Positions 1,300 to 49,199 of a stretch of 64,000 nucleotides of DNA are shown here, piece by piece. Source of the stretch: a virus; IMG/VR virus record IMGVR_UViG_3300045988_163663; one strand, written 5' to 3'. The position numbers and the translations under genes were made by a program. A model generated the notes under the pieces. It had not been told where the DNA came from and ran no database searches. It was given only the letters and a program-made list of their open reading frames with translations. Each line of letters begins with the position of its first letter. The first letter of the stretch is position 1.

Positions 1300-1541
1300 A
1301 AAATCAACATAGATGGTCTGGTGAATGGACACAGGGGGGAGCCCTTGGAGCACATGACCTCTTTACTCTCAACGGGGAATGGGATGATATTCTCTATATC
1401 CCAGTTGGTGCAGAGGGCTGGGCGGATGGCTCTAATGCTTTCAACCTCTCAACCCAGGAGTTTGAAATCATTCCCCAGCATTGGGAAGTCTTTAAGGTAG
1501 ACCTTGATAGGTCTAGGGCAAATTGGAGTGAAGAGGGGTAA
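1296..1541 (+). CDS. hypothetical protein, MKNQH paralog 2
   Basis: Starts MKNQH; translationally coupled TGAAATGA. Confidence 0.45.
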   Translation: MKNQHRWSGEWTQGGALGAHDLFTLNGEWDDILYIPVGAEGWADGSNAFNLSTQEFEIIPQHWEVFKVDLDRSRANWSEEG

Positions 1542-1574
1542 GACCCTCTTCACCAACAGAAAGGAATTGATAAT

Positions 1575-1886
1575 ATGATTAACATCCGCACAATCAAGAA
1601 GCTGGCTGATGGCGATGGTCTGACCCTTAAGAATGGAAAAATCAAGAGGTACAAGAGTGGCTATCAGGTAGCCACTAATGGCGTCGAGGTCATAAGCCCT
1701 GAAATGGCAATACAGGCGGTTCGAGAGTTCAAAGGCACTTGCGGCGTTTGGGTTGAAAATGGCAGATATTACATTGACATTTCCAAACGAGTTTCCACAA
1801 AACGCGAGGCGGTTGAAATTGGCAAGAAATGTAATCAGCTTTCGATTTACAGATGGCGTGGCAATCCGGCTTACCTTTACATTTAA
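1575..1886 (+). CDS. hypothetical protein
   Basis: ORF 103 aa after AAAGGAATTGATAATATG leader. Confidence 0.45.
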   Translation: MINIRTIKKLADGDGLTLKNGKIKRYKSGYQVATNGVEVISPEMAIQAVREFKGTCGVWVENGRYYIDISKRVSTKREAVEIGKKCNQLSIYRWRGNPAYLYI

Positions 1887-1892
1887 TTCCAT

Positions 1893-1920
1893 ATGGGGCT
1901 GGAAATCAGCCCCATTTTTC
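1893..1920 (+). terminator. rho-independent terminator
   Basis: GGGGCTG-gaaat-CAGCCCC hairpin followed by TTTTT. Confidence 0.6.
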
Positions 1921-2212
1921 TATCTTTTGGAAATGAATATTTATACATTTCAAAATGAATATTCATTTTCTTTAATTCATCATCACTTTAATCAAATGAA
2001 GTTCCTCGCCGGGGCGTGGCGAAATTGCTATATCCACAGCAGGCTCGCCACGCCCCGCATTTTCCATTTAATACCAATTCCGAATATTTCCAGCCAAATT
2101 TTACCATATCTGACATTATGTTCCATTTCCCATATCCTACCAGCTTATGGTATATAATTCCATACCATTTATTTCCAAAATCTTTGTGCATATTGACGAA
2201 TAAAAAAATTTG

Positions 2213-2242
2213 ACTTTCCTATTGACATTTGCCATAGGGTGT
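2213..2242 (+). promoter_or_regulatory. sigma70-like promoter (TTGACA-18-TAATAT)
   Basis: Consensus -35 and -10 hexamers; GTTCCnnnGGAAC hairpin at transcript start. Confidence 0.45.
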
Positions 2243-2298
2243 GCTAATATATAATTGTTCCAAGGGAACAGATAAAAAATGAAATGGAGATACAAAAA

Positions 2299-2460
2299 AT
2301 GACTACTGAAAGAATCGCTGAACTGCTGAACGAATGGATTGATAATGACCATGATTTCAGTGCGGAATCCATCAATGACTTCTGCAACACATATGCCCGC
2401 AACTACGACGAGTATATGGGTCTGTGGTACACAGTCTGCGGTTGCATCGAGGAGGACTAA
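2299..2460 (+). CDS. hypothetical small protein
   Basis: 53 aa ORF (MTTERIAELL...), TAA stop. Confidence 0.35.
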   Translation: MTTERIAELLNEWIDNDHDFSAESINDFCNTYARNYDEYMGLWYTVCGCIEED

Positions 2461-2612
2461 CATCATGTTTGAATTTGAAATGTACAACGTCAACACGGGT
2501 GAAACGGAAACTGCATATGGCTACTCCCTAGCAGACGCTAGGGAGAGAAGCCCAAAGTATGAGAGCCGCGAATGGGTTTGTCTAATGTCTACTTATATTG
2601 ATTAAGGGGGAA

Positions 2613-2807
2613 ATGAAAATGAAAATGTCTGAATTTGCAAACAACATTCTTGATAAGAAAATGCTGATTGAACTTATTAAACACCTTCCTTCTTGTGAAG
2701 CCTGTCCTTTTCAGAAGGCTTGTGAGAAAGCGGTTATTGATAATCCGGATGAATCTTGCGAACAGTTCCTTAACCGTTGGATTGAAGATGATAGGAATGA
2801 GGGCTAA
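2613..2807 (+). CDS. small Cys-rich protein
   Basis: SCEACPF...C...C motif; similar small Cys protein at 6116. Confidence 0.4.
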   Translation: MKMKMSEFANNILDKKMLIELIKHLPSCEACPFQKACEKAVIDNPDESCEQFLNRWIEDDRNEG

Positions 2808-2837
2808 AAAGCCCTCTTCCAAAAGGAGGAAATTAAA

Positions 2838-3161
2838 ATGGATATTACAAAATTGCAAGTCAGTCAGCATATCAAGGAAGACCGGCTAGACAGATATGTT
2901 GAAATTCAAATGAATACCGGACTTGGCGAACCTGTTGCAAAATTCAAATATGAGGACAAATGGCAGATTATTACAAGCACAGGAGTGATTTTGATTACAG
3001 ATAGCCGGATGGAATTTCTAATCACATTATATTATGTCAACATGGACAAAGCAACTGCAATTTTCAGACGAAACGGGCAGATGAAAATGCCGAAAGTGGT
3101 ATATGAAGCAATTCAGAAGAACATGGCAAAAAAGCTAATTAAACATAGAAAGGAAAAATAA
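2838..3161 (+). CDS. hypothetical protein
   Basis: ORF 107 aa with AAGGAGGAAATTAAAATG RBS. Confidence 0.45.
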   Translation: MDITKLQVSQHIKEDRLDRYVEIQMNTGLGEPVAKFKYEDKWQIITSTGVILITDSRMEFLITLYYVNMDKATAIFRRNGQMKMPKVVYEAIQKNMAKKLIKHRKEK

Positions 3162-3163
3162 AA

Positions 3164-3394
3164 ATGAAAATCGAATTTGCACAGAAAAAAGAATTTAGAC
3201 ATTTCGCTTCCTTGGAAGTTGGAACTGTTTTCCGCGACCCAAGGACAGACACAATTCATATGAAAACAGAATGTATTGACAATGAGGGCGATGAAATTAA
3301 CGCAATTGATTTAGCTACCGGAGAATTTGACTGTTTCCCTGATGATGCAAAAGTCTACGCCGTAGAAGCTACACTGAATATTAAGGAGTGGTAA
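3164..3394 (+). CDS. hypothetical protein
   Basis: ORF 76 aa. Confidence 0.4.
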   Translation: MKIEFAQKKEFRHFASLEVGTVFRDPRTDTIHMKTECIDNEGDEINAIDLATGEFDCFPDDAKVYAVEATLNIKEW

Positions 3395-3396
3395 AA

Positions 3397-3606
3397 ATGG
3401 AAGGAGATAAGACGTGGAAATATCTGGTAATTAACTTCTTCCCCACAAAAGACTGGCCGCGTCTGTTTTTTGTAGATGCCTCGTGCCGTTCAGAAGCTGA
3501 ATCCCATATTCAGAAGCACTGTGGAAAAGACTATATGTTAGTCGAAAATGATGAACCTATCGCAAGAGTTCTTGACGCTTCCGAAATTCCGCATTATAAA
3601 TTCTAA
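3397..3606 (+). CDS. hypothetical protein
   Basis: ORF about 69 aa from ATGGAAGGAG. Confidence 0.4.
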   Translation: MEGDKTWKYLVINFFPTKDWPRLFFVDASCRSEAESHIQKHCGKDYMLVENDEPIARVLDASEIPHYKF

Positions 3607-3787
3607 AATCAATTTGAGTTTCCTCCCATATTTTGGGAGGAAATTCTTATTTGAAAATTATAGAAAAAAATAATATAATTTTTTATATAAAAAAAATAAT
3701 TTTTATTTCTGTTTCAATTCTATAATTTTCCAGTCGAAAAATCAAATGCGGAAAATTTTGGCAATCCCATAATTTGGGAATTCATTT

Positions 3788-3817
3788 GAGCCAGCCGCGA
3801 TCCAACGCCGCGGCTGG
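3788..3817 (+). repeat. GC-rich hairpin of early intergenic cassette (copy 1)
   Basis: GAGCCAGCCGCGatccaacgCCGCGGCTGG; same architecture at 5965, 7676, 9968, 11761. Confidence 0.6.
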
Positions 3818-3935
3818 AATTTCGCGAATTAAAGTGCTAACGTAAAAAAGTTTTCCAAATCCTTCCAGCCCAGCCCTTGGAAATTTTTCCCAAAATCTTT
3901 GTGTAATTTGACGAAAGTATTTTCCATTTTATGTC

Positions 3936-3964
3936 TTGACATTTGGCTTGCCCTGTGCTATACT
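3936..3964 (+). promoter_or_regulatory. sigma70-like promoter (TTGACA-17-TATACT)
   Basis: Consensus hexamers upstream of 3998 gene. Confidence 0.45.
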
Positions 3965-3997
3965 ATAAACAATCCAAGAGGAAAGGAACTGATTAAA

Positions 3998-4165
3998 ATG
4001 ACTGACCGCGAAGCCCTCGACCAAATTCTGGAACATCTGAATGGGAACTTGCAATCTATTGTTGCTGATGAATCAACATATGTCGAAATTGAGAACGCCT
4101 GTTTAGGCGAAGACATTATGTTTGAATTTGACAAAAATGGAAATATTTTGTCAATCGGTTCTTGA
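3998..4165 (+). CDS. hypothetical small protein
   Basis: 55 aa ORF MTDREALDQ... Confidence 0.4.
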   Translation: MTDREALDQILEHLNGNLQSIVADESTYVEIENACLGEDIMFEFDKNGNILSIGS

Positions 4166-4179
4166 AAGGAGAATCTGAT

Positions 4180-4563
4180 ATGAAAGTCTATATGGCTGGT
4201 GCGTTCTTCCGTCCTGAAACAAAATCAAGAATTGATTCATATGCGGCTGGTTTCCGGCGGCTTGGGTATGATGTATTTGTGCCACAAGAACATACAGTCC
4301 CGAACGCTTGGGAGATGTCGCAAGAGGATTGGGCAAGGGAAGTTTTCAAAATGGATATTGCCGCCATTCAAGAATGTGACATGGTGTTTGTTGTATATGA
4401 TGGTCTGTATTCTGATTCTGGAACAGCTTGGGAAATCGGATATGCTTATGCTCTTGGGAAAAATATCCAAATGAGTGTAAATAATGGTGTAAAAGATATG
4501 TCTATTATGCCATTTGCAAGTGCTTGGGCTATTGAAAACTATAAAAATATTAAATTAGTTTGA
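4180..4563 (+). CDS. nucleoside 2-deoxyribosyltransferase family protein
   Basis: YMAGAFF...DSGTAWEIGYAYALGK signature of the family. Confidence 0.7.
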   Translation: MKVYMAGAFFRPETKSRIDSYAAGFRRLGYDVFVPQEHTVPNAWEMSQEDWAREVFKMDIAAIQECDMVFVVYDGLYSDSGTAWEIGYAYALGKNIQMSVNNGVKDMSIMPFASAWAIENYKNIKLV

Positions 4564-4634
4564 AAAAAACACTTGACAAATTTGGTTGAACCTGTTATAA
4601 TAAAGATACTCCAAAAGAGAAAGGAAATGATAAA

Positions 4635-5108
4635 ATGATTAAGGAATTATGTTTCGATCTTGATGGAACTCTGGTTGACCTCTATGGTGTGGAAGATTGG
4701 CTTGATAAAATTCGAGCCTATGACCCTACACCCTATCAGACCGCCGAACCGCTGGTTGATATGGCAGAACTTGCTTGTCTGCTCCGTAGCTTGCAGAACT
4801 GCGGTATCAATGTCGCAGTTATCACTTGGCTGTCAAAAGAGCCGAACAAGCAGTATGATGATGAAGTCAGAAAAGCAAAACGAGCTTGGCTGAAAGAATA
4901 TGGTTTTCCATTTGACAGTCTGCGATGTGTAGCTTATGGAACGCCGAAGCATAAGGTTGAAGCCGCAAGACTTGCTGATGATGAAGAAGCCCTGATTTTT
5001 GATGATGATGCAAGAGTCCGCAGGGATTGGGACTTGGGCGGAGCAATCGACCCGACTAAGGTTGACATTCTGGAAGTATTGAAAGAAATTTTGAATGGGC
5101 TGGAATAA
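4635..5108 (+). CDS. HAD-superfamily phosphatase (5'(3')-nucleotidase-like)
   Basis: FDLDGTLVD HAD motif I; K and DD motifs downstream. Confidence 0.6.
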   Translation: MIKELCFDLDGTLVDLYGVEDWLDKIRAYDPTPYQTAEPLVDMAELACLLRSLQNCGINVAVITWLSKEPNKQYDDEVRKAKRAWLKEYGFPFDSLRCVAYGTPKHKVEAARLADDEEALIFDDDARVRRDWDLGGAIDPTKVDILEVLKEILNGLE

Positions 5109-5132
5109 TCCAGCCCATAAGGGGAAAATGAA

Positions 5133-5351
5133 ATGAATGATATTCTTAAAGAGCTTACAGACTTGGCAAACCAGATTGGAAAATTAGCTGGAAAAATTTA
5201 CTGTGAAAAAAAGAATATCTCAAATCCTTATGATTTTACAAACGCACAAGAATTAAGTGATAAACTGTTTGAAATTCATTCTGATTTACAAAATGACTGT
5301 TATACTTTGGCTGTTGCCATTTGGGGAGACGATGAAGATGATGATTCCTAA
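5133..5351 (+). CDS. hypothetical protein
   Basis: ORF 72 aa. Confidence 0.4.
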   Translation: MNDILKELTDLANQIGKLAGKIYCEKKNISNPYDFTNAQELSDKLFEIHSDLQNDCYTLAVAIWGDDEDDDS

Positions 5352-5604
5352 AAAAATTACTGTCAAATATTCAGGCTATGATGAAAAAAGAGTATATTAT
5401 AACAATGAATTAGATTTTCGCACAGAACGTGATGCCGATTCATTTATTTTAGACATGAAAAGACTTATGTTCGGAGTAAAGACCTACACAAAAATTATTA
5501 CTTGGGGAGAAGAATCAAATGAATGACGAACAGCTTGACATTTTGCTTGAAGAAGCAACGGACATTAAAATTTTAATTGCCTTGGGCTGAAAGGATGGAT
5601 AAAA

Positions 5605-5892
5605 ATGGAAACAAAATTTATTTGGGTAGTTCATTTTGAAGAAGCAGATTTCAACGACTTGGACTGTGCATTCGACAGTTTTGAAATGGCGAAAGAAGCA
5701 GTCCAGACAATTTTTGACAAAGTTTCCGCAGTAAATCCTGCTTGGCAGAATCTGATGCTGGATGATGAAGATATCGAAGATGAATGGGCTGTTTTCAGTT
5801 TTGATTATATCGGAGAAGATGCCAAATTCTTGCTGAAACCAAATGTTGGTATTACAGTTTTTCCTTGTCCTCTCAATTCACTTCCTATTTGA
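5605..5892 (+). CDS. hypothetical acidic protein
   Basis: ORF 95 aa. Confidence 0.4.
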   Translation: METKFIWVVHFEEADFNDLDCAFDSFEMAKEAVQTIFDKVSAVNPAWQNLMLDDEDIEDEWAVFSFDYIGEDAKFLLKPNVGITVFPCPLNSLPI

Positions 5893-5964
5893 AAAATTTG
5901 GGAATCCAGATTTTGGATTCCCATTTTCTTACTTGTCTATTGGAATTAAATGGAAATTCTATTT

Positions 5965-5996
5965 GAGCCTGCCGCGAACCAACGCCGCGGCAGGCA
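5965..5996 (+). repeat. GC-rich hairpin of early intergenic cassette (copy 2)
   Basis: GAGCCTGCCGCGaaccaacgCCGCGGCAGGC then ATTTTAGATTTT. Confidence 0.6.
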
Positions 5997-6115
5997 TTTT
6001 AGATTTTCAGCATTTTCACCAATTTTTTACCCCAAATTTTGTGCAAAATGACAGTTGACTTTTTTCCCGATACCTGCTATACTATTGGTACAAGGTTAAG
6101 GGAGGGAATACCTAA

Positions 6116-6289
6116 TGACTTCTGACGAAAAACTTAAATACTGCATTGAGCAATGGGTCGAAACATTTGATGATTGTGCTTGTTGTCCTCTGATGTTCAA
6201 ATGCCGAGATGATGAAGATATCCAAGGCATTGACTGCATTGAATGTGGTGAAAAAATTATTGATTGGTTAAAGGAGAATGAACTATGAA
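6116..6289 (+). CDS. small Cys-rich protein
   Basis: DDCACCPLMFKC...CIECG; 57 aa. Confidence 0.4.
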
Positions 6290-6698
6290 AAATCTGTATT
6301 GGAAACGTACTTACATGAAAATGAATGATGGTCAAGAGCCTATTCTGAACTGGGACCCGCAACTTGTTTATCGCCCCGAACCGCCTGAAAATGAAGTATT
6401 GACAATTAAAAACACAACAGACCTTGCAGTAGCTATTTGCAGTAACTATGTCAATGGTTCTATTAAGCGTGGGACTTTTGACAGAAGAATCAAAAAATTC
6501 CATATCGAGGATATGAGATACTGGAAAGGCGAAGAATACAAGCCCGAAAAAATCAGTTTCCCTGTTTCACGTGAAACAATTTATAAACCAATTGATTATG
6601 ACATGAGTTTCAAGAAGTTGTCGGGAGAATTGTCCGCAGAAGATTTTATCCGCTGGATGAAAGACAATGGAATGAACACTTGCCCGATGATTAAATAA
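6285..6698 (+). CDS. hypothetical protein
   Basis: ORF 137 aa. Confidence 0.45.
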   Translation: MKNLYWKRTYMKMNDGQEPILNWDPQLVYRPEPPENEVLTIKNTTDLAVAICSNYVNGSIKRGTFDRRIKKFHIEDMRYWKGEEYKPEKISFPVSRETIYKPIDYDMSFKKLSGELSAEDFIRWMKDNGMNTCPMIK

Positions 6699-6766
6699 AT
6701 TAGGGGTTGACAAACAACCCCTAATGTGATACAATAACTATACAAATTAAGAAAGGAATTGATACC

Positions 6767-7138
6767 ATGAATTATGGAATTTACTCTGTATTGAAAAAAC
6801 TCACCGAGGGTTCTGAATTATCAAGCTATGACAAGTACGTTCTTGAAAGAGCTTGTCAAAAGCATGAAGAAGAACTTGAACGTCGGCACGCTATTCAGGC
6901 AGAAAAAGCTGAAAAGATTAAGGGTCTAATCCTTTTGGTTTTGAATCATGCAGATAAAGCATTGACTCCGACAGATATGCAGTTTGATATTTACCGAGCA
7001 GTCAACGAAGAAATTCCTTGTCAGGCTATCGCATGGTATGCTATTCAGCTTGCCTATTTTGATAACAAACTTAACTGTACTCACAAAAGAAATAAAACTT
7101 ATTATACCATTAAGAAAGAGAATAAAGCCCTATTGTGA
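6767..7138 (+). CDS. hypothetical protein
   Basis: ORF 123 aa after AAGAAAGGAATTGATACCATG. Confidence 0.45.
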   Translation: MNYGIYSVLKKLTEGSELSSYDKYVLERACQKHEEELERRHAIQAEKAEKIKGLILLVLNHADKALTPTDMQFDIYRAVNEEIPCQAIAWYAIQLAYFDNKLNCTHKRNKTYYTIKKENKALL

Positions 7139-7174
7139 TACAATAGGGCTATCAAAAGAAAGGAATTGATAAAA

Positions 7175-7624
7175 ATGAAAGCAACTGGCATTATTCGCAG
7201 AATTGATGACCTTGGACGTGTTGTTATTCCGAAAGAAATTCGCCGTAGCTTAAAGATTCATGAGGGTGACCCACTTGAAATCTTTATTGAAAATAACGGC
7301 GTTTATTTTCAGAAGTATTCAACACTTGGTTCCCTTGCAGAAGAACCCTTACGAATTGCTATTAAAATGGCATCAAATTCCGGTTTGCGTCCTATTGCAA
7401 TTTATGACGCTGATACAAAATTGCGAGGTATGGAAAACTTTCCGTCCTATGTCTCAAAGACCTGGGAAGATGAAGACGAACCATTTGAATACAATGCCAC
7501 TTACGGCGTTTACCCGATTGACGCAGATGGTGACCGCGTGGGATATGTGGTTTGCGATTCACAAGACATGGGCTGTGAAGTGATGATGATTGCCCGCTAC
7601 CTTGGTACTGTAATTGAGGATTAA
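7175..7624 (+). CDS. AbrB/SpoVT-type DNA-binding protein
   Basis: N-terminal GIIRRIDDLGRVVIPKEIRR swapped-hairpin motif. Confidence 0.65.
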   Translation: MKATGIIRRIDDLGRVVIPKEIRRSLKIHEGDPLEIFIENNGVYFQKYSTLGSLAEEPLRIAIKMASNSGLRPIAIYDADTKLRGMENFPSYVSKTWEDEDEPFEYNATYGVYPIDADGDRVGYVVCDSQDMGCEVMMIARYLGTVIED

Positions 7625-7631
7625 AAAAAAA

Positions 7632-7675
7632 TAACACAAGGGGCTTGATAAAATAAGTCCCTTGTGTTATTTTTT
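7632..7675 (+). terminator. rho-independent terminator
   Basis: AACACAAGGGG...CCCTTGTGTT 10-bp stem followed by TTTTTT. Confidence 0.55.
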
Positions 7676-7706
7676 GAGCCTCGCGGCCACGGTCCAGCCG
7701 CGAGGA
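7676..7706 (+). repeat. GC-rich hairpin of early intergenic cassette (copy 3)
   Basis: GAGCCTCGCGGccacggtccaGCCGCGAGG. Confidence 0.55.
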
Positions 7707-7826
7707 TTTTTAGATTTTTGGCACATTGCACAATTTTTTACTCACAAATTTGGTTATTCTGCCAATAGACAAAAATCCTGAAACCGTGTATAATTAAGAT
7801 ACAAATTAAGAAAGGAATTGATAAAA

Positions 7827-8138
7827 ATGATTATGGACGCCGCTATTGTTAAAGCAATGAATTTGCAGGACTTGAACGACTACATAAATAACAGGAAGCC
7901 GGAAGAATTACAGACCCTAATTGCATTAGCCAAGGAAAGGATTAACCAATTAGACCAAGAGAAAGAAGCAAAGTACATGGCCGCAATCATCAAATCTGTT
8001 CAGGATTATCTGGATAATGTTGGAGATTTGACATTCCATGTTGAGTATGAAGACGAAGATGGCCAGGACGCGGCAACTGACATCACCGTAGACAATCTGA
8101 ATCCGCCTGCTGGTGGCAATGGAATCATTTATATTTAA
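7827..8138 (+). CDS. hypothetical protein
   Basis: ORF about 103 aa. Confidence 0.4.
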   Translation: MIMDAAIVKAMNLQDLNDYINNRKPEELQTLIALAKERINQLDQEKEAKYMAAIIKSVQDYLDNVGDLTFHVEYEDEDGQDAATDITVDNLNPPAGGNGIIYI

Positions 8139-8150
8139 GGAGTGATACAA

Positions 8151-8465
8151 ATGCTTACAAATCCGGGTTTTTATTTTGCTTGGTTAGTTTTAACCATTCT
8201 TCCTTTAATGATCGCCATTGTTGCTCCTGAAACTTGGCATGGTAGAGTTGTTGCTGTTCTGATTGCGATTGCTATTGGTTTTGGCGTTGCAACTCTATTG
8301 TACAAAGAACAAGAAAGCAATCATGACCGCTGGAATAATGGTTATTGTGAATGCGGCGGCGAGTATCAATTTTCAAGTGCTACAAATTGGCGTGGTTCAA
8401 AAAACTATTATTACACTTGTGATAAGTGCGGGCATACAGAAGAATTTTCTTCACTCATGAGATAA
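8151..8465 (+). CDS. membrane protein with C-terminal zinc-ribbon
   Basis: Two TM-like segments then CEC...CDKCGH. Confidence 0.4.
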   Translation: MLTNPGFYFAWLVLTILPLMIAIVAPETWHGRVVAVLIAIAIGFGVATLLYKEQESNHDRWNNGYCECGGEYQFSSATNWRGSKNYYYTCDKCGHTEEFSSLMR

Positions 8466-8748
8466 AAAACGCCGGTTGGGAAAAAAATTATAAAAAAAAA
8501 TTCCCAACCGGCTTGACAAATTAAAAAAAATTTGATATAATAATAGTACCAAAAGGAAAGGAATTGATACTATGATAGCATTGATGAAATACGAATGTGG
8601 ATTAAGATTCACAGGGCTTGTTTTTGAAGATGAAGAAACAGCGGAAAAATACATGAAAGAGCATTGGATAAATCCAAAAGAAGTAAAGTTAGTACCAGCA
8701 ACTGGATATTTCAAAAATGGTGAAATTAAGTGAAAGGAATTGATAATC

Positions 8749-9159
8749 ATGACTGAAATTACAACCTATGAGTGCGACTTCTGTGGGCAGGTGTTCGACG
8801 ATGAAGAAGAATGTATTCATCACGAATGGAAATGCAGATACGAAGATTTATGTAAATCTGAAAATTGCGAACCGCTGAAACTGTTCGACCTTGAAGGTAA
8901 GGAAATCAATGGTTTCGATTATCCTAAATGTGATGAAATTGGAGCGGTGGAAATTCATTCTTATGCCCAAGCACAATTCATCAATGATTATTTTGATGAA
9001 ATGGGCTATGAAGTTCCCATTAAAATTGTCATGGGACTGATTGACTACTATGGCTTGTGGTATTATGACCCTGAATACCACTATGGCGAGTGGCGGTCTT
9101 ATGAAGAAGTTCTTGAAGATATTCAGGAAATTGGCAAGAAATTTAATCAAGGGGCTTGA
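8749..9159 (+). CDS. zinc-ribbon containing protein
   Basis: CDFCGQ...CIHHEWKC motifs. Confidence 0.4.
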   Translation: MTEITTYECDFCGQVFDDEEECIHHEWKCRYEDLCKSENCEPLKLFDLEGKEINGFDYPKCDEIGAVEIHSYAQAQFINDYFDEMGYEVPIKIVMGLIDYYGLWYYDPEYHYGEWRSYEEVLEDIQEIGKKFNQGA

Positions 9160-9214
9160 CAAGCCCCTTGACCTGTGATATAATTGATTTATCAAAAGGA
9201 AAGGAAATGATACA

Positions 9215-9490
9215 ATGAATTATCAGGTTATTTTCATGGACAATGAAGGGACTGTTCAGACGGGTATCTGGAATCAGGACAGAGATGAAATTATCTGCGG
9301 CTGTTGTGGTGCAACAATCGAATCGGGCGATTTTGTCCTGCTTCACATCTATGATGAATGGTTGAACATCACCGATGAAATCTGCGGGGATGACGGAGAA
9401 ATTCTCAATGAGATTGAAGAAAAGGTCGATAGACTAACTACCTCTGAAATTGAAGCAATTCTTGATGGAAAGAAGGATTTCAACGAATGA
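9215..9490 (+). CDS. hypothetical protein
   Basis: ORF 91 aa with CGCCGA motif. Confidence 0.4.
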   Translation: MNYQVIFMDNEGTVQTGIWNQDRDEIICGCCGATIESGDFVLLHIYDEWLNITDEICGDDGEILNEIEEKVDRLTTSEIEAILDGKKDFNE

Positions 9491-9638
9491 AAGGAAAGAG
9501 ATTTAATAAGGGCGGTTATACCGCCCAAGTCATCCAGTGGGATGATACAGACGCCTTGTGGATTTGCCAATACTCTTGGGGCGAATATTTCTATGAAGAT
9601 GATGAATTTATCAGGGAAAATCTGGTGGAGGATTGAAA

Positions 9639-9959
9639 ATGGCTTTTTTTATTAAGGTTATTATGGCTTGGTTTAGAAGAAATGAAATGCCAGTTGTAAT
9701 TTATGGTGCAGATGGTCTTCCCGTTACAAGTTATAATACCACGGTAAAAGATTACTGGTTTCCAAAAAATTTAGGAGAAGCATCAAAAATTGAAAATGGC
9801 TGGTATTGTTATCCATTGAATGCCAATGGTGAATACTGTGGTTGTATTTGCTGGGAATGGTGGGAAGATGATGATGATTTTGAACAGCCAGACATTTATG
9901 ATGTTTTGAACATCTGTAATCTTCTGGAAATTGCTTGCGGTTTGGATGAAAATTCCTAA
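9639..9959 (+). CDS. hypothetical protein
   Basis: ORF about 106 aa. Confidence 0.4.
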   Translation: MAFFIKVIMAWFRRNEMPVVIYGADGLPVTSYNTTVKDYWFPKNLGEASKIENGWYCYPLNANGEYCGCICWEWWEDDDDFEQPDIYDVLNICNLLEIACGLDENS

Positions 9960-9967
9960 AAAAAAAT

Positions 9968-10012
9968 GGGCGGTTCGTTTGAGCCGCCCAATTACCAACG
10001 CAATTGGGCGGC
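9968..10012 (+). repeat. GC-rich hairpin of early intergenic cassette (copy 4)
   Basis: GAGCCGCCCAATTaccaacgcAATTGGGCGGC, then TTGCACAA...TTGTGCAA inverted repeat at 10028-10065. Confidence 0.55.
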
Positions 10013-10278
10013 ATTTTAATTTTTAAGCATTTTGCACAATTTTTTCATGCAAATTTTGTGCAATTTGCCAATAGACAAGAATCCTGAAACATGGTATAAT
10101 TCATAATGTCAAGAGGGAACAGCAACTAAAAGTGCTTGGCATCATTAGCCGGGCTACACAACTTCCGCGGTTCGTGTGTAAAAAAAATAAAATTCCCTCT
10201 TGACAATCCCCACCTGATGTGCTATAATTAAGTCAACAAGTGAAGGAAACACTTAAAAACCAGAAAGGAATTGATACC

Positions 10279-10665
10279 ATGGAAAAGATTAAAGCCCCCA
10301 CCCGCAAGGAAATGTTCACCCGCGTTTCTGATTTCCTCGCAGAACATGAAGCAGATACTGCCCTGATTGATTTTGTCAATCACCAGATTGAGCTTCTGGA
10401 CAGCAAGAAGGAAAACAAGAAGCAGGCCAAAGAGCAGGAAGAAAACGCCGCCTACTCTGATGCAATCTATGAGCAGATGGCATTCGAGCGTAAGTACAGC
10501 GTCGCAGAGCTGATGAAGGAGCTTCCGGCTGTCAGCGATTGGAACGCCAACCATGAAACCGAGCTGTCGGTTCAGAAGCTCGCAAGTCTGTTGAAGCCGC
10601 TTGTCGATGGTGGCAAGGTCATTAAGACCACGGAGAAGCGTCGCGTGTTCTACACCAAGGCGTGA
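10279..10665 (+). CDS. hypothetical protein, paralog family X copy 1
   Basis: C-terminus ...GKVIKTTEKRRVFYTKA shared with 13118 and 41435. Confidence 0.5.
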   Translation: MEKIKAPTRKEMFTRVSDFLAEHEADTALIDFVNHQIELLDSKKENKKQAKEQEENAAYSDAIYEQMAFERKYSVAELMKELPAVSDWNANHETELSVQKLASLLKPLVDGGKVIKTTEKRRVFYTKA

Positions 10666-10714
10666 TAAACCAAGGGGGGGCGGAGAAATCCGCCCCACTA
10701 ATTAAGGAGAGCCT

Positions 10715-11113
10715 ATGAGAGAATTGACTGAAAAGGAATGGGCAAAAGTCGATAATCTTGTTGACAAGCTGGAATGTTCGATTGATGAAGCAGTTGACAT
10801 TCTGGACGCCGACAAAGCTATTGACCGTAATCAAAAGGTTGATTTTGATTTAAGTCCAGAAGAACATAAGCAAGCAATGAAACTTGCTAATGTCAAAGAG
10901 CATACGGTCAAGAAAAGCAATGTGTACCGCCCGCGTAAGCCTAATGAAATTAAAGGTGCGATTATCGCCGGTTTGTCAAAATATTTGGCAGAAATGGCAG
11001 ATTTTGAAGTGTTGGATGAAGAAATCACCAACAAAGAGCGGACGATAATGTTTACAAGTGGCGGCGAACGGTTTGAATTGACCCTTATCCAGAAAAGAAA
11101 GCCGAAAAGTTAA
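10715..11113 (+). CDS. hypothetical protein, paralog family Y copy 1
   Basis: Follows family X gene as in second copy at 13588. Confidence 0.45.
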   Translation: MRELTEKEWAKVDNLVDKLECSIDEAVDILDADKAIDRNQKVDFDLSPEEHKQAMKLANVKEHTVKKSNVYRPRKPNEIKGAIIAGLSKYLAEMADFEVLDEEITNKERTIMFTSGGERFELTLIQKRKPKS

Positions 11114-11169
11114 AGAAAATGGGGATTTTTCCCCATTTTCTTCCAAAAAAATTGAAAAAGGTGATAAAA

Positions 11170-11736
11170 ATGGCAAAAAATCCCACGTATTCTGATTATG
11201 TTTCGTCCAACGATTTTGAGGGTGCAAAGGAAAGATTTGACAATGCAAACAAGCGTTGGAAGTCTCATTGGTTTGAAGCTTGCGAAGAAATCTTCAACGC
11301 TTGCAAGGATTGGGCAAAAAAGTATATTCTGGACAAGGTAAATCAAGCAATCCTTATCATTGGTGAGTTTGTTACCAAGAGACGGCCAAAAGAAGAAGGA
11401 ACAAGTAACACCTACCTAATCAAAATGTTTGATGAAGCAGGCAAATGGGTTTTTACAAAAATTGGTAAGGCTAATATAATTGTAAAGAGGATGCAAGGGC
11501 TTCTTAAACGTGAATACAAAAGAGGCGGCAGGGTAAAGATTTCTAACATTGAAATTGTAAAGTCTTACCAGTTGCCGAATGATGACCTTGCCCAAGTTCT
11601 GGAAAACCTAATGAGAGCCTATTTCAGAAAAACTCGGAAATTTATTCCAAACGATAGGTTCGAGGCGTTTGAACCGACTGCCGAAGATTTACAAGTTTTT
11701 GAAAATAATTACAATTTGGTAATGGCGAACGCATAG
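11170..11736 (+). CDS. hypothetical protein
   Basis: ORF about 188 aa from MAKNPTYSDY. Confidence 0.45.
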   Translation: MAKNPTYSDYVSSNDFEGAKERFDNANKRWKSHWFEACEEIFNACKDWAKKYILDKVNQAILIIGEFVTKRRPKEEGTSNTYLIKMFDEAGKWVFTKIGKANIIVKRMQGLLKREYKRGGRVKISNIEIVKSYQLPNDDLAQVLENLMRAYFRKTRKFIPNDRFEAFEPTAEDLQVFENNYNLVMANA

Positions 11737-11760
11737 GGGCAGAAATGCCCCTTTTTATTT

Positions 11761-11793
11761 TGAGCTGCCCGGCCACGACCTAGCCGGGCAGAA
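11761..11793 (+). repeat. GC-rich hairpin of early intergenic cassette (copy 5)
   Basis: GAGCTGCCCGGccacgacctaGCCGGGCAG. Confidence 0.55.
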
Positions 11794-12031
11794 TTTCCAA
11801 TATTTACCAGTTTTACCAATTTTTTTACCAAAACCCTGCTTCATTTGATTAAAGTATTAAATCCTTAAAGTGCCGCACTTTACCACATTAAAGTGTTAAA
11901 GCGTGCATAAATATTCATTGAAAATGAATAAATATTCTTCTTGACATTTTGGGCAAGGTGTGATAATATATAAGAGCAATGAGGGAGCGATGGCAAACCC
12001 TGATTGACATTATTAAAAGGATGGAAACCCT

Positions 12032-12889
12032 ATGACTAAACTTGATAAGCGTCGAAAGTATTACCTGATTCTGGATTGTGAGACGGCTACCTTGCCGTAT
12101 GCCGCAAAGTTTCCCGCAGATATGAAGAAGAATGTAGCAATCGCCAAGCCGCTGATTTATGATTTGGGATGGCAGATTGTGGATATTCGGGGCAAGGTCT
12201 ACAAGCGTGCGTCCTATCTCATTTCTGAGATTTTCAGTGTTCCCGCCGTTTTCAATACTGCATATTATGCAAGCAAGCGTCCGATTTATCTTGACCGTCT
12301 AAAAGCCGGAGAAATCAAGCTGACGGACTGGAATACGGCTGTCGCAGAACTGATTGAAGATTTGGACGCTGTTGTAGCTGTTGGAGCATATAACAGTATG
12401 TTCGACTTTAAGAAGGCTATTCCATTCACTGACCTGTATGTTTCCAAGCTGTACTCGCCTGATTTCTTTGAATGGGAATCTTATCAGAATGAACGATGTG
12501 AAGCAATCGCCCATGGAAGCAAGCCCCATTTGCAGAAAGAGTTTGAACCTGATATTTTCCGCTTCCATGGCAAGGCGTATCCGCTGTTTGACCTGTGGGG
12601 CTTGTCTTGTGAACATCTGTTGAATAATCCTGACTATAAGCAGATGTGCTATGATAATGAGTGGAGAACGGCAAGCGGCAAATATTATCCGACTAACGCG
12701 GAAAAGGCATTTGCCTATTGTTTCCAGCAGGAAGATTTTGAAGAAGCACATACTGCAATCGAGGACGCAATCATTGAATCCATGCTGTTTGCCCTCATTG
12801 GAGAAAAGACCAAGCACAAGTTTGAGATGGGTATTGAATATTTCCCCTACAAAAAGTTGGGAAGATTTGACAGTGATTGGGAGCTGTAA
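12032..12889 (+). CDS. DEDDh-type 3'-5' exonuclease (DnaQ-like)
   Basis: LILDCETAT (Exo I), YNSMFDF (Exo II), HTAIEDA (Exo III) motifs. Confidence 0.65.
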   Translation: MTKLDKRRKYYLILDCETATLPYAAKFPADMKKNVAIAKPLIYDLGWQIVDIRGKVYKRASYLISEIFSVPAVFNTAYYASKRPIYLDRLKAGEIKLTDWNTAVAELIEDLDAVVAVGAYNSMFDFKKAIPFTDLYVSKLYSPDFFEWESYQNERCEAIAHGSKPHLQKEFEPDIFRFHGKAYPLFDLWGLSCEHLLNNPDYKQMCYDNEWRTASGKYYPTNAEKAFAYCFQQEDFEEAHTAIEDAIIESMLFALIGEKTKHKFEMGIEYFPYKKLGRFDSDWEL

Positions 12890-13022
12890 AAGGCTCCCAT
12901 CCCTCCCAAAATTTTCATAGCTACGGTATTGAAATTGCCATTCTGACAAATACTTCCAGCGTTCTGCGATACTTCATTCAAGTCGAAAAAAAATCGTGGA
13001 AAATTCAAAATAAGGTATTGAC

Positions 13023-13051
13023 AAATCAATAGGTTTGTGATACAATATAAT
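13023..13051 (+). promoter_or_regulatory. sigma70-like promoter (TTGACA-17-TACAAT)
   Basis: Consensus hexamers; GTTCCaagagagGAAC hairpin at +1. Confidence 0.45.
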
Positions 13052-13117
13052 TGTTCCAAGAGAGGAACACAAAACAAATAAGGGTTGCGACCTACCGCTA
13101 GAAAGGAATTGATAATT

Positions 13118-13495
13118 ATGGAAAAGAAGATTACCTATGCTCAGGCTCTGAACACCGTTCTGAACAATGAGAACATCATCCTTGCATCTGATGTGCGGGA
13201 GAAGCTGGAAGCTCTGCTTGCTTCTGTCTCCAAGAAGTCCGGCGAGAGAAAGGAAACTGCACAGCAGGTGGAGAACGCCGAGATGGTGGAGCGGATTTAT
13301 CAGGAGATGGAAGCCAACCGCACCTACTCTATTGCCGAACTGATTAAGGAACTGCCGGTTGTGGCTGACTTCAATGCCAACCATGAGAATGATATGTCCA
13401 CGCAGAGAATGGCGAATCTGCTCAGAACCCTCGTGGAAGATGGCAAGGTTATCAAGACTACTGAAAAGCGGCGTGTCTATTACACCAAGGCATAA
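13118..13495 (+). CDS. hypothetical protein, paralog family X copy 2
   Basis: ...DGKVIKTTEKRRVYYTKA C-terminus. Confidence 0.5.
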   Translation: MEKKITYAQALNTVLNNENIILASDVREKLEALLASVSKKSGERKETAQQVENAEMVERIYQEMEANRTYSIAELIKELPVVADFNANHENDMSTQRMANLLRTLVEDGKVIKTTEKRRVYYTKA

Positions 13496-13587
13496 GTGAA
13501 AAAGAAGTAAGGGGAGTTTTCTCCCCTTACTTCTCCCAGCTAATTCCAGATAGTTCCCAGCAAAGAAAATTCTAATAGGACGGTAAA

Positions 13588-13950
13588 ATGTCAATGACCG
13601 CTGAAAAGTTGGCAAATTCGCTTAAAATTTCCATTGAAGAAGCTAACCAAGTTTTGGAAATGGATAAGCGAATTGATAGGGGCGAAAAGTTGTTTGAGTT
13701 GCCGCCGGAGTTTGAAGCAGGAGCGAAAAAGGCAAGACGTGCTGACCGGAAGAAAGTGGAAAATGTAAAACGGGAACGCAAACCTGATGAAGATAAAAGG
13801 GAGCTAATCCAGTATTTGGAAAGTTCCTTGGAAGATGCCTACCCTGATTTAGATTTGGGTAATATTACCATTACAAATCCAGAACGAGAAATGGAATTTA
13901 TTTACAATGGAATTAAATACCGGTTGACCCTGATGCGTCCAAGGAAATAA
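13588..13950 (+). CDS. hypothetical protein, paralog family Y copy 2
   Basis: Same gene order as 10715. Confidence 0.45.
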   Translation: MSMTAEKLANSLKISIEEANQVLEMDKRIDRGEKLFELPPEFEAGAKKARRADRKKVENVKRERKPDEDKRELIQYLESSLEDAYPDLDLGNITITNPEREMEFIYNGIKYRLTLMRPRK

Positions 13951-14248
13951 TTGGAATGGGATTTTCTCCCATTCCAATTTTTGGAATTATAATTGGAAAA
14001 TTTTTCCAAGGAAAATATTGGAACAGATGGTAATTTCAGCCGGTCGTCACTGGCAGTGATGACCGGAATTCTAGAAAAACTTACCATATGGCAATTTTTT
14101 GCTCAATCTAGCGGCCTCTCATATGCCGCATGTTTTTCCCGAAACTGGTTCGCTTCGCTCACTATATTTGCAATTTTTAAAAAAATATTTTATAATATAT
14201 ATACAGAATAAAGAGTTCTGAAAATCTTTATAAAGAGGTAATATACAT

Positions 14249-14644
14249 ATGTATGATTTTTATGATCGTCTGATGAAGGGTGAATCCGCAGAGGATATTG
14301 CCAAGAGCATCACTGATGAACTGAACAAGGCACAGGCCAAGAGAACAGAAGAGTTGAAGGCTCAGGCTGAAAAGTCCAAGAGAGATCAGACAATGGCCGC
14401 GGATGCAGAGGCTATCTGCACTGGCTTGGCGAAGTTTGCAAAGGATTACTATGGCTATGACATTGAGGTTAAGCCGGAAGACCTGATGAAGGTTTTTGAT
14501 ATGGCTGATAAGATTGGTCGTGCTATTGAAGACCTTGGTAAGACGGTTGAGAAGCCTGCTGAGAAAGTAAAGGCTAAGGTATACAAGGTCAATGGCTCTG
14601 CTGATGAAGTCATTGATAAGTTCCTTGATATGATGGGGTGGTGA
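14249..14644 (+). CDS. hypothetical coiled-coil protein
   Basis: ORF 131 aa, last gene of GC-richer block. Confidence 0.45.
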   Translation: MYDFYDRLMKGESAEDIAKSITDELNKAQAKRTEELKAQAEKSKRDQTMAADAEAICTGLAKFAKDYYGYDIEVKPEDLMKVFDMADKIGRAIEDLGKTVEKPAEKVKAKVYKVNGSADEVIDKFLDMMGW

Positions 14645-14712
14645 GGAAAAGGGCTTATGCCCTTTTCTTTTTAGCCTAAAATGGAAATTTTTGGAAAGTC
14701 AAATTTGACTTT

Positions 14713-14745
14713 TATAAAAAAATATGATATAATATTAAAAAAAGA
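14713..14745 (+). promoter_or_regulatory. AT-rich phage promoter-like motif (first copy of late family)
   Basis: TTTATAAAAAAATATGATATAATATTAAAAAAAG; family recurs over 20 times downstream. Confidence 0.45.
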
Positions 14746-15016
14746 TATAATTGCATTAGGGTAGTGATTATTTGTTGTCGGTCGATATAACAATAATAGG
14801 GGTGCCACTGGTGCAGTAGGGCCACCCTTTTCTCAATTTTTAGTAATTTGACACAATTTAGCTCAATTTTAATACAATTTTTAATGATTTTTTAATATAA
14901 TTATATAATTTTATATACATTTTATTAATGTTTGATTATAATATAATTTAATATACCTTATACTACTCTTATTTTATATTATAAGATAAGTAGACTAATT
15001 ATTATATTAGCCTACT

Positions 15017-16941: not shown

Positions 16942-17156
16942 ATATATTCTCCTTTTCTTTTATTAATCTACTATATATAAAAATTAAATCAATATTCTTA
17001 ACCGCGGTGGCCCAAAAAATTTTAAGTAATTTATAACAAGTTTAATTGATATAAGTTGAAATAAAAATATACCTATTGGTTTTATAAATAGTGGAAAAAT
17101 ATAAAAAAATTTGATAAAATATATATAAGATAAAAGATAAGAAAGGAAAATCTTAA

Positions 17157-18108: not shown

Positions 18109-18362
18109 TTACTATCTATACAGGCCTTCAACGCAAACATCAGGTAAAAAATGACATTCGCTTCGTAAAAGGCAACAATACTACTAATACTATTTATGTT
18201 ACCTTTTGGAGCGGCAGAAAAGCTAAATACAAATGTGATGATAGAATCTATTATATTGCTGCATATGAGAGACTTCGCCGAAACATTCAATATCCGTTTT
18301 AATTGAAAAATAAATAAAAATATTATAAAATATATATATAAAGAATAGAGGAGAAATAAGAA

Positions 18363-49050: not shown

Positions 49051-49199
49051 GCTCTCGTAGCTCAATTGGTCAGAGCCGGCGACTTATCCAAAATTAGTTT
49101 AAATGGTAAAATAGTTTATGCGCAAGAAAGATGTAAGTTCAAATCTAACATTTTGGGCCAAATCGCCAGATGTGGGTTCAAATCCCGACGGGAGCACCA
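49051..49199 (+). tRNA. tRNA with about 80-nt insertion in anticodon loop
   Basis: GCTCTCG-TA-GCTCaattggtcaGAGC, anticodon stem GGCGA(49078)...TCGCC(49163), T arm and acceptor CGGGAGC-A-CCA. Confidence 0.5.

Follow-up and report, generated by a model that had tools for sequence, protein, structure and literature searches.

A stretch of 64,000 nucleotides (nt) from the IMG/VR record IMGVR_UViG_3300045988_163663 (the window, throughout), which comes from a large uncultured phage, carries five copies of an intergenic element, here called c1 to c5, in each of which a GC-rich hairpin lies upstream of a promoter. What such a repeated element does between the genes of a phage is the question that this locus raises. 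An earlier note on this DNA had read the sequence between hairpin and promoter as an inverted repeat, TTGCACAA and TTGTGCAA, serving as the operator of a dimeric regulator. On balance, the five copies are probably something else: composite boundary cassettes between early gene blocks, each of which combines an insulator hairpin, an octamer box, a sigma-A promoter and a recombination joint. Each cassette would close one early block and open the next, for which the sigma-A promoter would restart transcription.

A hairpin family between small genes

From about 0.6 to 14 kilobases (kb) the window is dense with small open reading frames (ORFs), all on the plus strand and nearly each with its own near-consensus sigma-70-type promoter with an extended -10; the layout is typical of an early or host-takeover region, from which we infer the timing. 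Cassette copies, five to seven in number, are confined to 2-14 kb, with none in the other 50 kb, and most ORFs adjoining them have no family match. The similarity among the five is not limited to promoter hexamers, the outcome that the earlier note had named as counting against a shared cassette; their alignment goes well past them.

At 3786, 5963, 7674, 9979 and 11760, on the plus strand every time, TTGAGCY leads into a perfect GC-rich hairpin, and the lead TTTGAGC is invariant across the five copies. Stems measure 9-11 base pairs (bp) and loops 8-9 nt, with a loop of the form (A)WCCAACGC in c1, c2 and c4 and CACGRYCYA in c3 and c5; folding energies lie between -18.7 and -22.5 kcal/mol and z-scores between -2.4 and -6.4. 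The heptamer TTGAGCY is not itself over-represented (16 matches against 18 expected), and 5 of the 16 lead into a CG-rich stem that is perfect over 9-11 bp. Nine copies were used to build a covariance model, which, run over the 64 kb with filters off, scored each of the five at 51-61 bits; the hairpin is real in all of them. The same search gave a weak sixth at 14032-14075 (20 bits, E 0.04) and no further hairpin.

All five are on the plus strand. Hairpin c1 (3785-3822) has its TTTGAG at 3785-3790, a stem of 3791-3799 and 3809-3817, the loop ATCCAACGC and the tail AATTTC, and reaches -18.8 kcal/mol and 56.3 bits. In c2 (5962-6007; 60.6 bits, z -6.4) the TTTGAG lead is followed by a stem of 5967-5976 and 5986-5995 around the loop AACCAACGC, and the tail is ATTTTAGATTTT; in c3 (7673-7718; 57.7 bits) the same lead precedes a stem of 7679-7687 and 7697-7705, with the loop CACGGTCCA and the tail ATTTTTAGATTTTT. 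The stem of c4 (9978-10024; 51.4 bits), again behind TTTGAG, has 11 bp (9983-9993 and 10002-10012) with the loop ACCAACGC and the tail ATTTTAATTTTT, and was flagged as terminator-like. Finally, c5 (11759-11800; 55.7 bits) carries the lead, a stem of 11765-11773 and 11783-11791, the loop CACGACCTA and the tail AATTTCC. The sequence ATTTTAGATTTT, which had been reported to follow the hairpin in general, does so in c2 and c3; c4 has ATTTTAATTTTT in its place, and c1 and c5 have AATTTC. At c4, an upstream copy, TGGGCGG (9967-9973), can pair instead with the 5' arm of the hairpin (9966-9991), an alternative kept in the related locus L119; on the minus strand it amounts to a GC stem followed by U9, by sequence a strong leftward terminator.

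For comparison, 80 related loci were retrieved through the neighbouring AbrB-like gene, and the composite pattern TTGCACAA-N16-TTGTGCAA-N8-TWGAC added 32 contigs from GTDB and 81 stretches from IMG/VR. Within the nine copies of the model all cells are paired, compensatory double changes fall at 7 of 9 pairs, and every stem change between copies leads from one Watson-Crick pair to another, with no one-sided (G-U) change. Among 47 family members 96% of cells are paired, against 31-44% in slid controls, and double-change cells number 101, against 35±4 in shuffles. The hairpin points the same way as the genes in 64 cases and opposes them in 2. In L119, a locus of the nearest relative (IMG/VR contig _152007, which also holds locus L058), the c1, c2, c3 and c5 hairpins differ from those of the window by a single change in 108 nt where the flanks are 88-92% identical; in this lineage the hairpins are under purifying selection. 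At c4, L119 has unrelated sequence in place of the inner stem and loop, with pairing and outer stem kept, which argues for selection on structure and not on loop sequence.

Several identities for the hairpin were set aside. Rfam, at gathering score, returned tRNAs only, and a permissive search (E up to 1) of 1800-14300 gave chance-level matches only. A 14-base hairpin pattern matched 118 stretches in IMG/VR, with true copies in a single one, the closely related L058. Reading TTGAGC as a -35 with its -10 inside or beyond the hairpin failed for want of a suitable -10; a hairpin promoter of the N4 type, an RNase III site and a nut site were dropped on stem length, loop size or position; and a conserved ACG in the loop (44 of 130 loops, against 29 with CGT) was not convincing.

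The octamer and its promoter class

Exact copies of TTGTGCAA or its inverted form TTGCACAA occur four times in the window, all within c2-c4. The inverted repeat of the earlier note is complete in c4 alone, where TTGCACAA (10032-10039), 16 nt, TTGTGCAA (10056-10063), 8 nt, TAGACA (10072-10077), 17 nt and TATAAT (10095-10100) make up a full box pair with its promoter (10032-10100). The c2 copy (6015-6046) retains the right box, TTGTGCAA at 6039-6046, beside a degenerate left box TTCACCAA at 6015-6022; its promoter (6055-6083) begins 8 nt after the right box with TTGACT (6055-6060), continues after 17 nt with TATACT (6078-6083) and drives the gene at 6115. The converse is found in c3 (7726-7757), with the left box TTGCACAA at 7726-7733 and a degenerate right box TTTGGTTA at 7750-7757, followed by a promoter (7766-7794) of TAGACA (7766-7771), 17 nt and TATAAT (7789-7794) that drives the gene at 7827. 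A promoter thus follows directly in c2-c4, as had been stated for all five; in c1 and c5 the TTGACA promoter comes about 120-150 nt further on. The long-form unit of c1 (3899-3964) has a right box with one mismatch, TTGTGTAA (3899-3906), at another spacing, 29 nt from TTGACA (3936-3941), with an extended -10, TGcTATACT, ending at 3964. The long form of c5 (11812-11969) has no right box; it holds a degenerate left remnant, TTTACCAA (11812-11819), 20 nt past the stem, then TTAAAGTG/GCACTTTA motifs (11864-11900) and a promoter (11941-11969) with TTGACA at 11941-11946 and TAATAT at 11964-11969, which drives the gene at 12032. All these parts lie on the plus strand.

About 190 related loci reveal what the octamer is attached to. 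Read in the TTGTGCAA orientation, 44 of 128 non-redundant sites are followed after exactly 8 nt by a -35-like hexamer, against 1 of 129 in the reverse orientation and a background of 0.45% per position, and a good -10 stands 17 nt beyond that hexamer at most of these sites, giving the consensus TTTGTGCAAa.Tg.c.aTtGACa, 17 nt, tataaT. In long forms the distance from box to -35 is 29-30 bp. The box is present at 191 of 1,585 non-redundant strong promoters, and 16% of boxed promoters have TAGACA as their -35, compared with 2.5% of unboxed ones. In many relatives 20 kb contain 5-9 octamers, against an expectation of about 0.6, and the composite pair is present in 81 stretches of IMG/VR and 32 contigs of GTDB. 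The GTDB matches lie almost all in metagenome-assembled genomes of gut Clostridia (Acutalibacteraceae, Lachnospiraceae, Coprococcus, Ruminococcus); about 0.5 matches would be expected by chance in that scan, by our estimate from the collection's size and the pattern's specificity, and fewer in IMG/VR if that collection, as we assume, is the smaller one. As cis-elements the octamers are real, and TTGTGCAA is an orientation-locked element upstream of the -35 of one promoter class, as expected of an upstream promoter element or class I-II activator site, since its distance and orientation to the -35 are fixed over many promoters.

Single boxes are the commonest form; about 25 stretches in IMG/VR fit the pattern on both strands, the two matches being offset by 13 nt, and there each box has its own -35. 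Because the octamer is locked in orientation at a fixed distance, and paired boxes each have their own -35, what had been taken for one inverted repeat is best described as two back-to-back promoter-upstream elements. In c2 and c4 of the window it is the right box that serves the cassette promoter. The left box of c3 and c4, the second and inverted one, is the remnant of a back-to-back leftward promoter unit with the same element, intact in relatives and decayed here. The fixed 8 bp (29-30 bp in long forms) from the -35 and the single orientation make the box a candidate upstream element of a special class of sigma-A promoters, one that would boost or regulate a subclass of these host promoters as an activator-type factor site or a UP-like element. 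From this geometry, a factor-binding role is predicted.

Precedents exist for such an arrangement. The p4 sites of phage phi29 are activator sites just upstream of the -35. The Mor site of phage Mu is centred at -43.5 on Pm (PMC4390567). Like these sites and like UP elements, the box is short and conserved and stands immediately upstream, at a fixed distance, of the -35 of a promoter for the host polymerase; A/T tracts flank it, and its promoters tend to have weaker -35 hexamers. It differs in being orientation-specific though nearly palindromic, and its activator role is putative.

The alternative proposed earlier, that TTGCACAA-N16-TTGTGCAA is a single operator through which a dimeric or tetrameric SpoVT/AbrB-like protein (7175-7624) switches the cassette promoters on and off, is unlikely. 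Many relatives do hold the box pair with its 24-bp offset, and the protein is a SpoVT homolog whose swapped-hairpin domain is a genuine DNA-binding one: over ~40 residues the N-terminus is nearly identical to that of Bacillus subtilis SpoVT (2w1t, E 2e-21), and the C-terminal part is shortened and weakly matches that of SpoVT. Its gene lies directly 5' of c3, and of a cassette in relatives too, and it is found in the flanks of 27 of 112 independently retrieved box loci. However, both octamers occur in only 1 of the 5 window copies, single boxes prevail elsewhere, and each box is tied to its own promoter (44 against 1 by orientation), none of which fits a palindromic operator for a dimeric repressor. 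Nor does the protein follow the boxes: relatives whose N-domain is 74-80% identical (L132, L136, L137, L147, L152 and L156) have no box in 12.5-20 kb around the gene. Other early genes are as frequent or more so in the 112 loci (a HAD-like gene in 43, an exonuclease-like gene in 41, genes for a 128-aa protein in 40 and for a 132-aa protein in 32), so the co-location reflects synteny of the early region. The 128-aa protein (10279-10665) was rejected as a binder for the same reason, as it does not follow box presence either. Literature searches for TTGTGCAA and TTGCACAA returned primers and unrelated matches only, and one for a SpoVT binding motif gave nothing usable; no published motif matched the box. 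The phage homolog might interfere with host sporulation control.

A full TTGCACAA-N16-TTGTGCAA-N8-TTGACA site was also seen on the chromosome of Coprococcus catus (L229, 3383-3427), flanked by an amidase gene (cwlD-like by eye) and a gene for a small secreted protein, and is conserved in four Coprococcus genomes (also L203, L214 and L218). It may be a chance match or a hint of a host factor that reads the box; as evidence for such a factor it was set aside, given the roughly 0.5 chance matches expected in the GTDB scan.

Terminators and converging promoters at the hairpin

In this phage family a canonical terminator consists of a G-run and a C-run around an agaaat-type loop, followed by a T-run. 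The hairpins of the cassettes form another class, CCGG/CGCG-rich, with loops of 8-13 nt and an AATTT-type tail. A canonical terminator lies no more than 110 nt upstream of 77 of 133 family hairpins, as against 2 of 133 in a control window, and of 4 of the 5 in the window; its T-run largely supplies the TTT of TTTGAG. One such terminator, at 11735-11752, lies directly 5' of the c5 hairpin. Because they usually stand just behind such a terminator, the cassette hairpins are not primary terminators, in keeping with the earlier note's view that they are no ordinary ones. Its argument from a missing U-tract was overstated: in the 8 nt past the stem c2 has 4 T and c3 and c4 have 5 each, c1 and c5 have 3, most of the family has 3-5, and a terminator scan passes c4 only. 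The loops of intrinsic terminators usually have 3-5 nt. With such terminators, single or in tandem, the cassette hairpins share a GC-rich perfect stem, an intergenic place, the orientation of the genes and, in c2-c4, a T-rich tail; they differ in their long loops, in the T-poor tails of c1 and c5 and in following a terminator of another style.

Selected for pairing and oriented with the genes, the hairpin would act as a second-line insulator behind the ordinary terminator, keeping the transcription of one block out of the next. Taken alone, this structure-dependent role is plausible, with doubt having slightly the upper hand. Several observations weigh against it. As 4 of 5 window hairpins and 58% of those in the family already lie behind a canonical terminator, a role in termination would be redundant at best; loops of 8-13 nt and the 3-T tails of c1 and c5 suit intrinsic termination poorly; and the invariant GAG (or GG) before the stem and the lineage-conserved loops fall outside the insulator account. 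The tight geometry of the promoters that in relatives fire into the hairpin hints at a function beyond insulation.

In those relatives (L120-L126, L157, L171, L210 and others) the full module starts with a canonical terminator, followed by TTGACA, 17 nt, TAAAAT, GG and the GC hairpin. Past the hairpin, AATTTaCC-ATTATA, 17 nt, TGTCAA, 8 nt and TTGCACAA constitute a minus-strand consensus extended -10 promoter with its own box, and the module ends with a 16-nt spacer, TTGTGCAA, 8 nt, TAGACA, 17 nt, TATAAT and genes. A promoter or half-promoter is aimed at 52 of 88 oriented non-redundant hairpins, with full promoters on both sides in 15 and partial or one-sided arrangements in the other 37. In 22 of 24 cases the left -10 stops 2-4 nt short of the stem, and in 27 of 29 the right one ends 7-8 nt from it. 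Hairpin-to-left-box distances form two clusters, one at 19-21 nt (43 of 130) and one at 44-45 nt (17 of 130). The converging promoters can match the sigma-70-type consensus at 12 of 12 positions, for example at 13132-13226 and 15671-15766 of L125. In the window, c2-c4 keep the 20-nt hairpin-box geometry, and the leftward promoter has decayed, because the hexamer that is TTGACA in relatives here reads AAATCT or AAAATT. From the left, c3 alone has a promoter aimed at its hairpin, a weak one (7645-7673) whose TTGATA lies in the loop of a terminator-like stem-loop (7637-7668) directly 5' of the hairpin. Other compact stem-loops with a -35 in the loop or a -10 in the stem were seen at 6699-6725, 7126-7150, 8487-8518 and 9145-9173, as well as at 7637-7668 itself (TTGACA in the loop at 6699-6725 and 9145-9173, a stem-loop over the -10 at 7126-7150); these terminator/promoter overlaps are of the kind found in the promoter-early stem-loop (PeSL) cassettes of T4-type phages and are distinct from the five long cassettes.

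The promoters of the module recall the face-to-face pairs pR/pL of coliphage 186 and pIN/pOUT of IS10. As in those, two strong promoters converge, with starts about 25 nt apart, and one RNA would begin with a stable hairpin. The relatives differ in having many copies per genome, a GC hairpin exactly between the promoters and no coding target beside the overlap, and the window copies lack both converging promoters, bar the weak one at c3. It is possible, if unlikely, that the window cassettes are the reduced form of a family-wide, undescribed three-promoter module, its hairpin a one-way valve or antisense device and its boxes bound by a host or phage factor that co-ordinates early transcription in a large group of gut Clostridia phages. 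Two consensus sigma-A promoters would then converge with nucleotide precision on the hairpin, the leftward RNA beginning exactly at the stem and the rightward RNA inside it, and the third would diverge from the leftward one across back-to-back TTGTGCAA boxes.

Early genes of T7 and SP82 have RNase III processing hairpins between them, and lambda nut sites pair boxA with boxB. The cassettes resemble these as repeated structured elements among early genes, with a linear motif beside a variable-stem hairpin. A reading in which the hairpins are processing or stability elements on rightward early transcripts, cut sites or 3'-end protectors, is distinctly unlikely. Intergenic, gene-co-oriented and covarying hairpins about 2 kb apart would suit it, and the conserved loops and GAG lead could be recognition features. 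Yet an RNase III substrate takes about two helical turns (~20 bp) of double-stranded RNA, far more than the 9-11 bp of the window stems; the elements lie upstream of their own promoter and mostly downstream of a canonical terminator, so little rightward RNA is expected there; and the c4 loop, replaced by an unrelated one in L119 and not conserved in close relatives, speaks against loop-specific recognition.

Recombination joints and mobile cassettes

A BLAST comparison of the window with L119 places window block 5984-6700 (the right half of c2 and two genes) in L119 after the SpoVT-like gene and the c3 hairpin, and an extra 1.1-kb gene absent from the window follows c2 there. In a five-way alignment, the L119 cassette at the c3 position reads as window c3 up to TTGCACAATTTTTTAC and as window c2 beyond it; the one at the c2 position joins the left part of window c2 to a c4-like right half. 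The crossovers fall inside the shared A/T spacer CAATTTTTT. Judged from the comparison with L119, the cassettes are thus joints of homologous recombination at which related phages have exchanged gene blocks, a role that they can serve because elements of about 90 nt recur in direct orientation about every 2 kb.

That the joints are seeded by the hairpin itself, acting as a DNA palindrome or cruciform that binds protein or is prone to breakage, with the nearby promoters incidental, is very unlikely. The exclusive Watson-Crick to Watson-Crick changes in the window stems, the demonstrated joints and the replacement of the c4 interior inside a preserved outer stem would all agree with it, as would wobble pairs, which show no clear strand bias in the family (23 against 15). 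The crossovers, however, lie in the A/T spacer and not at the hairpin, and a symmetric DNA element would not be expected to share the direction of transcription so strongly, in 64 cases against 2. More improbable still is a hairpin that forms the 5' body of a small leftward RNA, antisense to transcripts starting across it as RNA-OUT is to RNA-IN in IS10: the minus-strand -10 of relatives, at 7-8 nt from the stem in 27 of 29, would start the RNA at the stem base, all five window loops gain G-U pairs as minus-strand RNA and c2, c3 and c4 have leftward terminator-like structures just past the hairpin, but the window copies lack a credible minus-strand promoter (AAATCT or AAAATT for TTGACA, or a 15-nt spacer), reverse terminators are not enriched (13 of 45 with a leftward promoter, 30 of 87 without) and the wobble bias across the family is weak.

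Beyond the five cassettes, the early region contains further elements. A divergent extra cassette, c0 (2010-2250, plus strand), lies outside the range first reported and consists of a 13-bp GC hairpin (2010-2058) with the tail CATTTTCC, a box TTGTGCAT (2184-2191) and a promoter (2222-2250). The regions upstream of c0 (1920-2005) and downstream of c5 (11836-11940) have inverted segments in common, tttaatcaaatgaag matching the reverse complement of cttcatttgattaaa, and both hold ATGAATATT repeats. The motif TTAAAGTG(C) or GCACTTTAA recurs at 3828-3838, 10126-10135 and 11864-11900 and in L167, L170, L213 and L227, with a palindrome TTAAAGTGCCGCACTTTA in c5, and is found in the long-form cassettes; some relatives have GTGCCGGCAC or CGCTTTAAAGCG at the position of the GC hairpin. 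The weak sixth hairpin (14032-14075, plus strand), of the same class (CCGGTC ... GACCGG, tail AATTC), stands at the end of the early block. Behind it, at 14078-14128, CCATATGGCA...CTAGC..CTC.CATATGCC is conserved, a motif with CATATG as an inverted pair, which marks the border of the early block and the AT-rich region and occurs in the relatives L120-L125 at about 17.5-18.0 kb. A family of very AT-rich, promoter-like repeats, TTGAAAAATAnAAAAAATATnATAAAATATATATA (3648-3698, 14165-14215, 14702-14752, 17089-17139 and 18300-18350), may be another temporal promoter class.

The c4 promoter drives a non-coding unit (10107-10205, plus strand) whose leader GUCAAGAGGGAA pairs with UUCCCUCUUGAC (-36.5 kcal/mol, z -4.8), and UUCCCUCUUGAC overlaps the -35 of the next promoter (10200-10228). 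Such pairing recurs: across the phage family promoters commonly have the start-site leader ATGTCAAGAGGGAAC, a purine run resembling Shine-Dalgarno (SD) or STAB-SD sequences, and its complement TTCCCTCTTGACA is the -35 region of the next promoter, giving a long-range stem of 12-13 bp that encloses 50-120 nt of non-coding insert, in some cases bearing a tRNA-like T-arm (GGTTCAAATCC). Units of this kind at 10107-10205 in the window, at 13575-13700 in L119, at 14624-14760 in L126 and in L224 may represent a small phage RNA family or a processing stalk. Translation of most early genes starts in the extremely stereotyped context AAGAAAGGAATTGATAnnATG (window 1536-13139; for example 6744-6770, 7151-7177 and 7803-7829). 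Elsewhere, the window has tail/baseplate, methyltransferase, RNA-ligase and MetK-like genes and, at 49-57 kb, 12 tRNA genes; an Rfam tRNA call of 146 nt at 49051-49196 (42.7 bits), which ARAGORN does not report, may be a tRNA with an insertion or intron.

In T4-type phages, PeSL cassettes have been described (Arbiol et al. 2010, PMC2839356; Comeau et al. 2014, PMC4122927), in which the stem-loop may precede the -35, overlap the -35 or the -10, or follow closely on the -10 (PMC2839356, PMC4122927), and for which terminator activity and mini-circle formation were measured with reporter fusions and inverse PCR (PMC2839356). Our cassettes share their composite build, a near-consensus sigma-70-type early promoter with a stable stem-loop, in dispersed intergenic copies among small ORFan early genes; all the stem-loop placements of PeSLs occur in the window or its relatives; and gene blocks differ between close relatives, with junctions within the motif. 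They differ in stem style (CCGG/CGCG-rich with 8-13 nt loops here, polyG/polyC in PeSLs), in the orientation-locked TTGTGCAA box and, in relatives, in the second promoter converging on the hairpin. The window phage belongs to an unrelated lineage with the signal of a Gram-positive (Clostridia) host, and megablast of window 3-13 kb against a phage collection found no match; homology or a lineage shared with T4-type phages is thus not indicated. The cassettes match the PeSL type of mobile regulatory cassette in architecture and behaviour without homology, so the resemblance is functional and architectural only, and what is new is the promoter-upstream box and, in relatives, the core of convergent promoters and hairpin.

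The IMG/VR relatives are contigs of 95-200 kb, and for uncultured gut Clostridia phages of 100-200 kb, which lack an experimental system, the grammar of hairpin, TTGTGCAA box and sigma-A promoter lets early transcription units be delimited; it can help to predict timing classes and to explain the reshuffling of ORFan-rich early regions. In Clostridia the box may represent a new promoter element or transcription-factor site, a clean candidate that lends itself to testing, and the convergent-promoter/hairpin arrangement of the relatives is a design that deserves experiment. The idea of the mobile regulatory cassette, developed for PeSLs in T4-type phages of Gram-negative hosts, is widened to an unrelated lineage, which suggests that cassette-mediated modular shuffling is a general solution.

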